Notes under the pieces: model-generated
What the model was told of the DNA's origin: nothing
Database searches by the model: none
What the model saw: only the letters and a program-made list of their open reading frames with translations
Shown: positions 33,286 to 52,987 of the stretch, piece by piece
Numbering within the stretch: position 1 is the first letter of the stretch
Layout: every line of letters starts with the position of its first letter
NCBI GenBank assembly: GCA_951406725.2
Contig: OX597825.1
Location: forward strand, 21,018,001 to 21,082,000
DNA from: Octopus vulgaris
Lineage: Eukaryota
DNA: 64,000 nt
Reading direction: 5' to 3'
Made by a program: the position numbers and the translations under genes

Positions 33286-33626
33286 TACAAATATATATAT
33301 ATATTTATTTACCTGCATGAGAAAATAGATGTATAATGCTGATTGTACACACACACACATACACACGTGGACCCTTACAAATGCATTATACCTGATGTTT
33401 GAAAGGTTGTTAGTTTATAATACTCTATCCGCCTCGTTTTAATATCTGCTTTTCTATACCTGCATGAGTCAGACAAGATTTATTGACGTAATTGGTCTGT
33501 GGGTCAGATGCATACATATACATATACATATATATATATATTAAATTAGAGATAAAACCACTATTAGGCAAATCAAACAGTGAAAAACATAAACCAAAAC
33601 ATAGAAATAAATTTAATATATATATA

Positions 33627-34036
33627 GGTGCAGGAGTGGCTGTGTGGTAAGTAGCTTGCTAACCAACCACATGGTTCTGGGTTCAGTCCCACTGCGTGGC
33701 ATCTCGGGCAAGTGTCTTCTGCTATAGCCCCGGGCTGACCAATGCCTTGTGAGTGGATTTGGTAGACGGAAACTGAAAGAAGCCTGTCGTATATATGTAT
33801 ATATATATATGTATGTGTGTGTGTTGTGTGTCTGTGTTTGTTCCCCTAGCATTGCTTGACAACCGATGCTGGTGTGTTTACGTCCCCGTCACTTAGCGGT
33901 TCGGCAAAAAGAGACCGATAGAATAAGTACTGGGCTTACAAAAAGAATAAGTCCCGGGGTCGAGTTGCTCGACTAAAGGCGGTGCTCCAGCATGGCCGCA
34001 GTCAAATGACTGAAAGAAGTAAAAGTAAAGTAAAGT
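33627..34036 (+). mobile_element. SINE family D
   Basis: full-length, close to consensus. Confidence 0.9.
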
Positions 34037-34912: not shown

Positions 34913-34916
34913 TAAC

Positions 34917-35386
34917 GTAAGGGGGATCAGCCATCTGAATGTGGCTATGGACAGGGTGGGGTGGTGGGGGTGTTAGTGATGCTTTTAGCCCCAGGCGATC
35001 ATCAACGTCACCAGAAGGACTGATACCATATCAGAGTCCTTGTTTGCCTGTAAAGGGAGGTCATCCTCCCTCGAAGATACGGATGCTACATACGGACCGG
35101 TTTCGAGGTCATTGCCTCTTATCAACGTATGGTAAGCACTGTTCCTCGATGAAGGATTCCCTCCACAAGCAACATATATGAGGTTTTTCACAGTAACTAC
35201 TGTCACTGATGTAGAAAAACTGTCTGAAAACAATAATAAATCTCTGAACGAGATATAAACAGTAACTGCTCGACAATGTAAGGGGGATCAGCCATCTGAA
35301 TGTGGCTATGGACAGGGCGGTGTGGTGGGGGTGTTACTGATGCTTTTAGCCCCAGGCGATCATCAACGTCACCAGAAGGACTGACA

Positions 35387-35392
<6 letters not shown>
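34917..35392 (-). mobile_element. retrozyme-like or solo pLTR-like element, 361-bp unit in partial tandem
   Basis: 34917-35031 is repeated at 35278-35392; intact hammerhead; flanked by TA runs. Confidence 0.8.
35089..35131 (-). ncRNA. intact minimal type-I hammerhead ribozyme motif (U3-A8)
   Basis: minus strand CATACG-TTGATAA-GAGG-caatga-CCTC-GAA-ACCGGT-C-CGTATG. Confidence 0.88.
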
Positions 35393-36993: not shown

Positions 36994-37615
36994 CAGGCAT
37001 GGCTGTGTGGTTAGGGAGCTTGCTTCCTAGCTACATGGTTTTGGGTTCAGTCCCACTGCGTGGCACTTTGGGTAGGTGTCTTCCTCTATAGCCCCGAGCC
37101 AACCGAAGCTTTGTGATTGAATTCGGTAGGTGGGAGTTACTGCCGTGTGTGTATGTGTGTGTATAGCTGCTCAGTGCCTCTCCAAAAGAGAGAGAGGGTA
37201 TGTATATATTTGTATCTGTGTTTGTCCCCTGTATTTGGCAACTGGTGTTGGTGTGTTTACATCCCTCTGTAACTTAGCAGTTCAGCACAAGAGACCGATA
37301 GAATAAGTACTCGGCTTACACAGAGTAAGTGCTGGGGCTGATTTGTTCATCTAAAACCACCATAAGGTGGTGCTCCAGCATGGCCGCAGTCAAATGAGCA
37401 AAACTGGTAAAGAAATAAATAAATAAAGAAATAAATAAAAAGAAGAAAAAAACGAGGGTAGCAATGCAACGACTGACAAGTACTGCGCATTCTGTGATTT
37501 CACCTTATGCACTGCGGTAAACAACTTATCAGCTTATGTAATATTCTACTATTTGTTTACTAAATAAATATAAGATAAAAAAATTAAAAAATTGTCAACT
37601 TCTATTATATTCATT

Positions 37616-38525
<910 letters not shown>

Positions 38526-40197: not shown

Positions 40198-40938
40198 CCT
40201 TTTTGTTACCATATTTCTGTTGAGATGCTCTGTGTTTCTTTTCTTTTACTTGTTTCAGTCATTTGACTGCGGCCATGCTGGAGCACCGCCTTTAGTCGAG
40301 CAAATCGACCGCAGGACTTATTCTTTGTAAGCCTAGTACTTATTTTATCAAACTCTTTTGCCGAACCGCTAAGTTACGGGGACGTAAACACACCAACATC
40401 GGTTGTCAAGCGATTTTTGGGAGGACAAACACACGGAGTGGTTGGCGTTAGGAAGGGCATCCAGCTGTAGAAACATTGCCAGATCAGACTGGGCCTGGTG
40501 CAGCCTTCTGGCTTCACAGACCCCAGTTAAACCGTCCAACCCATGCCAGCATGGAAAACGGACGTTAAACGATGATGATGATGATGATGATACACGACAG
40601 GCTTCCTTCAGTTTCTGTCTTCCAAATCCACTCACAAGGCTTTGGTCAGCCTGAGGCTATAGCAGAAGACACTTGCCCAAAGTGCCATGCAGTGGGACTG
40701 AACCCGGATCCATGTGGTTGGTAAGCAAGCTACTTACCACACAGCCACTCCTACGCCTGCGTTTTTTTTTTCAATTACATTAAATATAACAAAGAATTTA
40801 GTAAAATAACTTATCATTAAGCTAGTGTTAGGAACACAAATTGTGACCAAGGTTTGGTGGAAGATTTTAATTTGGAATTTTTGAAAACAAGACGTTAGTA
40901 CTACAGAAGTGGCTTCAGTTGGGTTGCTATTAAAAAGG
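40198..40938. mobile_element. piggyBac-like MITE family 2 hosting SINE D, which hosts a family F tail
   Basis: TTAA-CCTTTTTGTTACC...AAAAAGG-TTAA; SINE D(-) at 40243-40757; F(+) at ~40432-40590. Confidence 0.75.
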
Positions 40939-45878: not shown

Positions 45879-46529
45879 ATATATAATATAATCAGTAAGA
45901 AGTTTTGTGACTAATATTTTAAGTCTTCTGGTGAGTATGTAGTTTATGTAGACAAGGTTCAATGGTGATGAAACCTGTAAATGGCTACATAAATTTGATT
46001 CAAAGGAAAATTAAATTCTAACTTCATATCATTTTTTTCCCACATAACGAGATCAAGAATTTCGAATTCATTTGTCAATATGGGAACAATTTTCTGGTTA
46101 CTTTCAGTTCATTTCTTGTTTTACCTTTTTACCTTTTCTTTCCATTTTGCTATGAACTAAACTCAGTCATATTTACGCTTTTTACCTGTAATTCCATAGC
46201 TAATTCTTCAGCTTTCTCATTTTGTTTATAGTTTGTCTCATTGATGCAGTCTGCCATTAACTTGTTCATTTTTAACCACAGTATTGTTTTAAAATTGTAT
46301 ATTTTCTCTGTTTCCATTGTTGTCTTTTGGTATTGTATTAAATGCTTTAATGTCAGTATTTCCTGAATTACCCTTTTCCATGTGCCAAATATTTATTAAA
46401 TGTGTGCATAAGACAAACAGGAATTGGAAAAAAAAATGCAGGGAAACAAAACAAATTAAATTTAACCCTTTCGTTACTGTATTTATTTTCAGATGCTCTG
46501 TTTCTTTCAATTACTTTAAATATAACAAA

Positions 46530-46896
46530 TGTAAAGTATAGAAGCCATCTTAACATGGCTAACCACATATGGGAGGGGGTGTTACTGTAGCTTTATAGCC
46601 CCAGGAGATCGTCATCTCCAGCTGGCTTTAGACAGCATTTCAGTGCCCTTGAAGTATTTGCAAAGGAGGCCATCCCTTCCTCGCAAGCCTGAGTGATACG
46701 CTCGGACTAGTTTCGGGATTTTTGTCCCTTGTCAACGGGCGGTAACCACCAGGTCGCGATGAAAGAGAAGGCCGCCTTGCAAATATATAAGAGTTTTTCT
46801 AGTGACGTCTGCCACTGATTTCGAAACACTGACAGTAAGCATTATTAAATCTCAGAATGAGATTGAAACAGTAATCGCTCGATAATGTAAAGTATA
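46530..46896 (-). mobile_element. retrozyme-like or solo pLTR-like element, 356-bp unit
   Basis: terminal redundancy AATGTAAAGTATAGAA at 46528 and 46884; colinear with 34917-35277. Confidence 0.8.
46699..46741 (-). ncRNA. intact minimal type-I hammerhead ribozyme motif (U3-A8)
   Basis: minus strand CGCCCG-TTGACAA-GGGA-caaaaa-TCCC-GAA-ACTAGT-C-CGAGCG. Confidence 0.85.
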
Positions 46897-47435
46897 GAAT
46901 TTAGTAAAATAACTTAGTTATCATTCAGCTAGTGTTAGGAACATAAATTGTGACTAAGGTTTGGTGGAAGATTTTTATTCAAAACTTATGAAGACAAGAC
47001 CTTTGTACAACAGAGCCAGAGCTGGTTTCAGCCGGGTTGGTAACGAAAAGGTTAATTAAATAATACTCTATTAAGGTTATCTGTTTGACAATAATTTTTC
47101 TGTTGATTCGATCTGTCTAGTTGCTTCCTGTTTTTCTATGCGCACATGAAAATGTAAAAATGTTTCGGTTACATAACAATGTGCATCAAATTCATGAAGA
47201 CAAGTTGTTGAGAGAAAAGAATGTAGAATAAACAACAAAGTTTGTTGTGTGTGATTTATTGAGGAATAGACTAAGTGGGTTTTTGCCAAATAATAACAGA
47301 TATATATTTAGAGCAAATTCAAGGACACTGTGAAGCTCATTGGTTGTGGGTAACATGATACAGTGCAGTTTATAGATTTTACATATGAATGCCATACAAA
47401 TGAAAAAAGAAAATACGAGATGATATATTTGCAAA

Positions 47436-48109
47436 GCAGGAGTGGCTGTGTTGTAAGTAGCTTGCTTACCAACCACATGGTTCCGGGTTCATTCCCACTG
47501 TGTGGCACCTTGGGCAAGTGTCTTCTACTATAGCCTCTGGCCGACCAAACCCTTGTGAGTGGATTTGGTAGACAGAAACTGGAAGAAGCCCGTCGTATAT
47601 ATGCATGTGTGTATATGTTTGTGTGTCTGTGTTTGTTCCCCCACCATTGCTTGACAACCGATGGTGGTGTGTTTATGTCCCCATAACTTAGCAGTTCAGC
47701 AAAAGACGCAGGAGTAGCTGTGTGGTAAGTAGCTTGCTTACCAACCAGATGGTTCCCAGGTTCATTCCCACTGTGTGGCACCTTGGGCAAGTGTCTTCTA
47801 CTTTAGCCTCTAGCCGACCAAAGCCTTGTGAGTGGATTTGGTAGACGGAAACTGAAAGAAGCCCGTCGTATACATGTATAGATATAGATATATATGTATG
47901 TGTGTTTATATGTTTGTCCCTCTAGCATTGCTTGACAACCGATGCTGGTGTGTTTACGTCCCCGTCACTTAGCGGTTCGGCAAAAGAGACCGATAGAATA
48001 AGTACTGGGCTTACAAAGAATAAGTCCCGGGGTCGATTTGTTCGACTAAAGGCGGTGCTCCAGCATGGCTGCAGTCAAATGACTGAAACAAGTAAAATAA
48101 GTAAAGAGT
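47436..48109 (+). mobile_element. two family D SINEs in tandem (first is 3'-truncated)
   Basis: second head at ~47708. Confidence 0.85.
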
Positions 48110-51875: not shown

Positions 51876-52987
51876 AATATATCTACTCTATGAATTCCTG
51901 TTTTTCTCTACATGTTTTATACATCCGGGGCTAGAAGTGAACTCTTGAGACATTTATTGAAAATTGAAGAACTGAATCCCTTAGGTCAGCACTGGTATTA
52001 CCCCTAGTCATCTTAATATATCACACTTTTACATGCAAACAAATCCATGGGTTGGGATTGAACCCAGAAACTTTTATCATAAATCCAATTCTGATATCCA
52101 ACCTATTAGTGTCTCTTGAATATATGTTAGTAGTCATTTAACCCTTTTGTTACCGTATTTATTTTGAGATGCTCTGTGCTTCTTTCAATTATTTTAAATA
52201 TAACAAAGAATTTAATGAAATAAGTTCATTATCATTAAGCTAGTGTTAGGAACATAAATTGTGACTAAGTTTTGGTGGAAGATTTAAATTCAAAACTTAT
52301 GTAAACATGACATTTGTATTAGAGCTAGAGGCAGTTTCAGCCGGGTTGGTATTGAAAGGGTTAATCTTCAATTTTTCTTGATATTTTTATAAAGCTAGTC
52401 TTAGTTTAACTATTGTCAACTGTCCTCTAAAAAAAAAAAGAAAGTGTCCGGTGATGAATCCAACTTAACTAAGCAAATGACTTTCTCCAGTTGTATAACT
52501 TAACGACCGAGAGTTTTTAAGATGTAAATGATATTAAATATTTTAATTAAACACTAAGTAAAGTATCTATTCATAAATAAATAAGGAACTTTCTGAAAAC
52601 TAACTGAATATGGACAGCTGTCGTATGATATATGATAATGAGGTGCTTCATAGAGAGGCCAATGTTTGTATGCTGTCAGTGACGTTGCATCATATTCATG
52701 GTCTGAACACTTAACTCTTAAGGGTCAAATCCATCTTGCTCTAAACAGGTCTTATCAGTACCAGTTTAGTTTAGTTCCCTGATGTTGTTAATCAGTGGCA
52801 GGAACCTAATCTGTTAGCTTGCAGTGTTTTATACTGTTACCTTCTGCAGGAATTGCTTGTTGTGATAGGTCAGTGCCACATCCAAGAGATTGATCTCTTG
52901 TTCATTTAATGCTGCAGGAAGTAAAGTTGAGCACTGGTACTCCTGATTTTTATGATCTAGTAACTAATCATGGTACATTCCATTGAG

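Follow-up and report, generated by a model that had tools for sequence, protein, structure and literature searches.

Insertion ends of a non-LTR retrozyme family in Octopus vulgaris point to integration of the Penelope type

Among the metazoan non-LTR retrozymes described so far, repeat units measure 350-390 nt in mussel and 330 and 350 nt in axolotl (Cervera and de la Pena 2020, PMC7229834), and a dimeric form of metazoan type I hammerheads has been described (PMC4209133). Mobilisation of animal retrozymes by Penelope-like elements (PLEs) was proposed in 2020 from shared features (PMC7229834) and was argued for in a 2026 preprint (10.64898/2026.07.22.740005). Hallmarks of PLEs include a tail at one end, inverted copies and a bias towards (TA)n (PMC8557442). 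With purified Anolis protein and AT-rich DNA, the PLE tail is generated in vitro from two adjacent internal start sites, and the start site was no different between the strands (PMC11167929). A literature search by title and abstract, with most subscription papers outside its coverage, returned no account of the octopus family described here or of a two-site signature in retrozymes. The main text of an octopus repeat annotation (PMC13282606) has no mention of a ribozyme, retrozyme or hammerhead, and its supplements may hold the repeats under other names.

The window, which is the whole 64-kb stretch of Octopus vulgaris DNA that was analysed, contains two insertions of a retrozyme family, belonging to lineages A and B. 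Their features are given below by position in the window.

46528-46899, minus strand (RNA sense): retrozyme insertion of lineage A, a 356-nt unit plus 16 nt (1.04 turns)
46699-46741, minus strand: type I hammerhead fold, with the predicted cut between 46705 and 46704
46528-46530, minus strand: fixed RNA 3' end at site 1, the putative reverse-transcription start, ~175 nt downstream of the predicted cut
46543-46560, minus strand: hairpin just upstream of site 1, found in all lineages
46836-46885, minus strand: tail segment from site 1 to site 2, internal in the window copy
46848-46864, minus strand: small tail hairpin of lineages A, B, C and E, nearly invariant and without covariation support
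46884-46899, minus strand: terminal redundancy and variable 5' end, with 4-nt microhomology to the target (right side)
34914-35392, minus strand: second retrozyme insertion, lineage B, a 361-nt unit (1.33 turns)
35089-35131, minus strand: type I hammerhead fold of the lineage B copy, from the both-strand scan

The redundancy of the lineage A insertion is a direct repeat of 16 nt (46528-46543 and 46884-46899) with a period of 356. The motif CTCGA.AATGTAA, which an earlier reading made from the sequence alone (the sequence-only reading) had identified as the boundary shared by a 356-bp and a 361-bp unit, occurs twice in the 64-kb window; both junctions were located, at 46878 and 35269, and are the internal unit junctions of the two elements. 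A relaxed scan of both strands of the window gave two type I folds and no more, each of them on the minus strand, and these have the stems that had been quoted, with CGCCCG/CGAGCG in lineage A vs CAUACG/CGUAUG in lineage B for stem I, GGGA/UCCC vs GAGG/CCUC for stem II, and ACUAGU vs ACCGGU for stem III. The lineage A hammerhead includes a 6 bp stem I with one mismatch, a 4 bp stem II and a U3-A8 core, positions 3 and 8 being named after what we take to be the hammerhead numbering. Its stem III is a palindrome of 6 nt for which full pairing is possible only between two copies. The two units are 66% identical, and the copies are separated by five compensatory double changes (2 in stem I, 2 in stem II and 1 in stem III) plus one change from mismatch to pair, so that the compensation claimed for all three stems is borne out. 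In the lineage B copy, the 3' end is at site 1 and the 5' end abuts (TA)n.

The longest ATG frame of the doubled unit is 41 aa and the G+C content is 45.5%, and the element is therefore non-coding and below 50% G+C. Predicted minus-strand folds of the lineage A and B units have z-scores of -5.3 and -2.8, respectively, and are composed of a long rod that extends stem I, together with side hairpins. Rfam gave no match at the gathering threshold anywhere in the 64-kb window. SINE-like dispersed repeats and long (TA)n arrays fill much of the window, for example at 47427-47920, 33621-33841 and 37611-37832.

The lineage A insertion splits a MITE, which was compared with empty paralogues in the same window.

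46462-47055, strand not assigned: host MITE split by the insertion, ~228 bp when empty, with terminal inverted repeats bounded by TTAA
49318-49545, minus strand: closest empty MITE paralogue, 91-94% identical
40765-40937, plus strand: empty MITE paralogue used in the flank comparison
52136-52357, plus strand: empty MITE paralogue used in the flank comparison

The closest paralogue had been overlooked by the sequence-only reading. As the flanks of the insertion overlap by only one base in comparison with all three empty paralogues, the window copy has no target site duplication (TSD). This had been claimed, together with microhomology and a short terminal redundancy, and these are also present as 2 nt shared with the target at the site 1 end (left side), the 4 nt on the right side and the 16-nt repeat. 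An orthologous empty allele was not seen, and the joints that skip the insertion come from short contigs of this high-copy MITE that are not tied to the locus. An independent lineage A insertion (locus L008, 1480-1930) is found in the same MITE family in the opposite orientation, ~10 bp from the site used in the window. The AT-rich stretch of the MITE near both lineage A insertions may be a favoured target.

The genome searched comprises 2.8 Gb in 227 contigs. Candidate places number 2,628 for the lineage A unit and 2,125 for the lineage B unit, of which 40 each were scored. Exact matches to the U3-A8 core motif number 1,942 genome-wide vs 44 for the reversed control; the motif sample consists of 88 loci covering 99 of 100 among the matches listed, all on contig C1. 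Monomers form six clusters in at least four deep lineages, with units of 350-365 nt that are 45-66% identical between lineages. Copies are dispersed and mostly 0.6-2 units long, with no long arrays. Of 195 pieces, 73 are longer than one unit and 2 longer than two units, with near-trimers in L219 and L239. The circular or multimeric template that had been proposed agrees with these copies, which read through the cut and past one unit. The same layout recurs in retrozyme lineages that are older or more diverged, at L223-L234 and L116 (5080-5318); one of them has a C3-G8 core, and another is represented by a truncated copy with 70% identity to lineage A. Further hammerhead-like motifs with a canonical core and no match to the retrozyme profile are present at L235-L238, and L236 has PLE protein homology nearby. 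Contigs assembled from runs presumed to be RNA cover parts of the retrozyme family, and strand, ends and level are unreadable from them.

Covariation was assessed in 21 monomers, made up of 19 of 101 full monomers (intact core, <93% identity) and the two window units. In the hammerhead stems, 94.7% of cells pair vs 80.3% in shuffles and 29-42% in slid controls, and double changes are seen at 6 of 6 pairs in stem I, 3 of 4 in stem II and 1 of 3 in stem III; the sequences are related, and this count of pairs was matched or exceeded by 36 of 500 shuffles. Of 31 named pairs, 3 passed an in-house tree-aware test against 20 null alignments, one each in stems I, II and III. The stem III pair ranks first of 58,311 column pairs, with one unrelated column pair scoring nearly as high. 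The selection on RNA structure proposed earlier is upheld by the pairing and the tree-aware test, and probable selection on the hammerhead fold is supported by covariation in stems I, II and III and in core pair 3-8. The side hairpins fared less well. Their sequences are present as had been stated, but are mostly invariant, and none of their pairs passes the tree-aware test in the 21 monomers. The GGAGG/CCTCC hairpin is outside the predicted folds and is missing in lineage C, and the hairpin at 46543-46560, though part of the RNAalifold consensus, is not significant by the tree-aware test.

The inner two bases of stem III are self-complementary in 88 of 97 motif matches from the 88 loci, and all four palindromes are in use (AT 45, TA 20, CG 18 and GC 5). 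Since these bases are unable to pair within one molecule, this points to a dimeric hammerhead. The core pair 3-8 also varies, with 1,942 U-A, 1,270 C-G, 264 C-A and 161 U-G matches genome-wide, some of the C-G, C-A and U-G matches belonging to other elements. Identity between a C-G and a U-A subfamily is 88-89%. Within lineage B, the C-G subfamily has the C-A subfamily as its sister, at 93% identity. The mismatched C3-A8 and the C3-G8 sister subfamilies, at L239-L246 and L219-L222, are both mobile and both include near-trimers. The C-A core may be an intermediate or a CpG-decay reversion. Because the mismatched C3-A8 subfamily has spread as a family, a perfect core is unnecessary for mobility.

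Ends were scored in 129 insertions, which are biased samples drawn from the best BLAST hits (56) and from motif-bearing copies on C1 (73) and include two duplicated loci and one stray fragment. RNA 3' ends (n = 186) are located at site 1 in 90 cases, at site 2 in 71 and elsewhere in 25, so that 161 of 186 fall at two sites vs ~10% if ends were uniform. Site 2 is 45-60 nt 3' of site 1, and both are far from the cut site; the distance from the cut to site 1 is 170-178 nt downstream in 6 of 6 representatives. In the window copy, site 2 corresponds to ~46834-46844, and the tail segment that is internal there forms the extended end in other copies. The 5' ends are spread round the unit, and a cluster at the predicted cut that was seen by eye was rejected as not significant (12 of 195 vs 14 expected), so that the genome bears no mark of cleavage.

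A run of (TA)5 is found at one or both ends in 82 of the 129 insertions by raw count. Among the 45 insertions without (TA)n flanks, TSDs of 9-16 bp are present in 13, and 32 have none of 8 bp or more; in a swapped-flank control, TSDs were seen in 0.8% of 1,980 pairs. Simple insertions in the C1 motif sample range from 230 to 582 nt, and lengths of 357-400 nt are seen in only 3 of 36. The sequence-only reading had taken the window copy to have integrated without a TSD after just over one turn, and neither feature is a rule of the family; the window copy is a site 1 insertion that happened to stop at 1.04 turns. Across insertions, 3' ends are fixed at two sites and 5' ends are variable. That reading missed the signature itself, in which start sites are internal and fixed at two positions, inverted pairs combine both, (TA)n is targeted, and a PLE has matching ends.

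Inverted insertions with both 3' ends outward account for 57 of the 129, and none has two 5' ends. Where both ends are at defined sites, 38 of 39 pair site 1 with site 2, and in the remaining 18 of the 57 at least one end is elsewhere. Both sites are also paired in 7 of 7 further inverted copies from the C-G and C-A subfamilies, an eighth (L219) being too complex to score. Tandem overlaps within an insertion have a median identity of 96.1% vs 95.7% for the ten best other copies, and inverted arms are 96.7% identical vs 95.2% to other copies; in this same-molecule comparison the single best other copy usually scored higher, and a circle and a multimer are not separated by it.

An intact PLE with a 781-aa open frame encoding RT and GIY-YIG domains is present in many copies in the same genome as the retrozyme, and a GIY-YIG search gave at least 150 scored matches, many in 781-aa frames. 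The CX2-5CxxC linker motif suggests that this PLE may belong to the Neptune or Nematis clade. The intact 781-aa frames belong to a young family represented at L112 (744-5030), in which a second frame of 330-480 codons lies upstream and overlaps, and the 3' region of 1 kb contains internal repeats. A hammerhead-like motif with a U3-A8 core and a palindromic stem III lies ~850 nt past the PLE stop, and is followed in the 3' region by two alternative ends ~40 nt apart that abut (TA)n. Six inverted arrangements were found among 43 PLE loci, 30 of which had been chosen for a tail; in five of the six a short end is matched with a tailed one, and in the sixth both ends are tailed. Two of the five share breakpoints and may be one event.

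The retrozyme and the PLE share only the core motif and the layout of their ends, with no wider sequence homology. In an nhmmer search of 40 PLE loci, representing part of the PLE families of the genome, the retrozyme profile matched only separate retrozyme insertions. These include a lineage A-like stretch 1.3 kb downstream of the PLE frame in L116, which was considered as a shared pLTR and rejected; the L116 PLE has an inverted terminus of its own and stops there, short of that stretch. The U3-A8 core also occurs in at least one further PLE family (L124). Given this second family and the failure of the profile to find shared homology in the 40 loci, no specific PLE partner is named. Further hammerhead-like variants are carried by other PLE families, with a C3-C4 core in L116 (4290-4345) and L119, and others in the 3' regions of L117 and L124. 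By these comparisons the retrozyme appears to work like a PLE passenger, and the similarity search gave no link to a known pLTR.

Covariation of the fold, the two fixed ends and how they pair, the target sites and the co-resident intact PLE with the same ends are direct observations, and the insertion ends amount to clear genomic evidence for what would be a Penelope-type integration. We consider it highly probable that the family is a non-LTR retrozyme with a predicted dimer-dependent hammerhead that is likely mobilised in trans by a PLE RT-endonuclease. Counting against it are the lack of homology to the 40 PLE loci, the second PLE family with a U3-A8 core, the 5' ends unenriched at the cut, the spread of the C3-A8 subfamily, the small number of named pairs passing the tree-aware test, the 25 3' ends away from the two sites and the bias of the samples. 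The minus strand would be transcribed as multimers, in which two hammerheads would pair via the palindromic stem III and cut out monomers, and these would be circularised as in the mussel and axolotl retrozymes. The PLE enzyme would then nick AT-rich DNA, often (TA)n, and cDNA synthesis would start internally at one of the two fixed sites 45-60 nt apart. Reading on a circle or uncut multimer would pass the cut site and come to a variable stop, to be joined by microhomology. Were both target strands primed, two arms would be inserted in inverted orientation, each started at a different site. Cleavage, the circles and the particular PLE that does the work are the presumptive parts of this scheme. 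A circle or an uncut multimer would in any case be needed for synthesis to start 175 or ~225 nt downstream of the cut and run past it, often for more than one unit.

The pairing of one end of each kind suggests a single complex that primes both strands from two registers. We would put at about even chances a more specific form of the proposal, in which each target strand is primed from a different fixed register by one complex, which would probably be a dimer bound to a single RNA circle, and the swap of the core from U3-A8 to C3-G8 is preserved beside a mobile C3-A8 sister subfamily. Two-register priming would yield inverted insertions that almost always combine a short with a tailed end (38/39, plus 7/7).

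The integration step is common to this explanation and to a possible but rather doubtful alternative, in which the unit is the detached pLTR of a not-yet-found or extinct PLE and is copied from uncut linear multimeric or read-through transcripts, with no circle and with the hammerhead as a passenger. A dispensable hammerhead would fit the lack of a pile-up of 5' ends at the cut and the mobility of the C3-A8 subfamily, as well as the reports that PLE priming in vitro is independent of hammerhead cleavage (PMC11167929) and that Xenopus retrozymes derive from pLTRs, with cleavage in 1 of 9 tested elements (10.64898/2026.07.22.740005). However, none of the 40 PLE loci has a homologous terminus, unit length is constant at 350-365 nt though lineages are only 45-66% identical, a long rod extends stem I in the predicted fold, and compensation is complete in the core and stem III.

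One turn of rolling-circle reverse transcription followed by TSD-less integration by an unspecified RT (e.g. LINE-type), with terminal redundancy as the signature, would describe the window copy, which has 1.04 turns and no TSD, and the 32 of 45 scorable insertions in which no TSD reaches 8 bp. Taken as a general rule, it is already contradicted by the 9-16-bp TSDs in the other 13 and by the broad range of insertion lengths, and two fixed internal ends with one-of-each inverted pairs are described for PLEs and not for LINE-driven insertions in the accounts available (PMC11167929, PMC8557442); we regard it as very improbable. That the family is a satellite or other repeat propagated at the DNA level, through recombination or DNA transposition, and resembles a hammerhead by chance, is scarcely credible. 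In its favour is the absence of an Rfam match, but covariation in three stems and the core pair, the polar structure with fixed 3' ends, variable 5' ends and TSDs, and the dispersal of copies, with only 2 of 195 pieces longer than two units, all argue against it.

The near-strict pairing of one end of each kind constrains models for the formation of the PLE tail and of inverted repeats, and a direct test could use the short templates and the core variants (U-A, C-A and C-G) that the family offers naturally. If the two-register reading is correct, protein-free retrozymes record the Penelope reaction in vivo, and a 356-nt substrate would be at hand for asking what generates the PLE tail and if mobility depends on cleavage.

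In comparison with the metazoan non-LTR retrozymes as described in PMC7229834, the octopus family has in common a type I hammerhead with a short palindromic helix III, a non-coding repeat in the range of 150-450 nt, a G+C content <50%, TSDs >4 bp when present, and co-existing PLEs. It differs in that the core is mainly U3-A8 and that copies of 0.6-2 units are dispersed, whereas long arrays are found in the described retrozymes. Circles and cleavage have been demonstrated for the latter, whereas in the octopus family they are predicted from the sequence. The two fixed ends and the inverted pairs are a feature of the octopus family, the available text of PMC7229834 giving no description of them for retrozymes. 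Mobilisation by PLEs was likewise concluded for vertebrate retrozymes, including those of Xenopus (10.64898/2026.07.22.740005). As far as its text was available, that preprint focuses on vertebrates, draws on co-occurrence and pLTR homology and leaves the mechanism open, whereas in octopus the evidence is the signature of the insertion ends, and pLTR homology was not found in the 40 PLE loci. A covariant U3-A8 core is shared with the Cercyon PLEs of Schistosoma (PMC4209133), where, as reported there, it belongs to minimal PLE hammerheads; in octopus it is found in a type I hammerhead of canonical size within a protein-free repeat that has C-G and C-A sister subfamilies. The closest likeness in integration is to EN+ PLEs, namely Poseidon of Anolis (PMC11167929) and Neptune/Nematis (PMC8557442), which according to these accounts have two start sites, a tail, partial tandems, inverted 5'-truncated copies, AT-rich or (TA)n targets and a type I hammerhead upstream of the start sites. 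Unlike them, the retrozyme has no open reading frame, and its tail, at 45-60 nt, is longer than theirs of 30-40 nt. The element class is therefore known, and the new part is a two-site PLE fingerprint in protein-free elements beside an intact PLE with the same ends.
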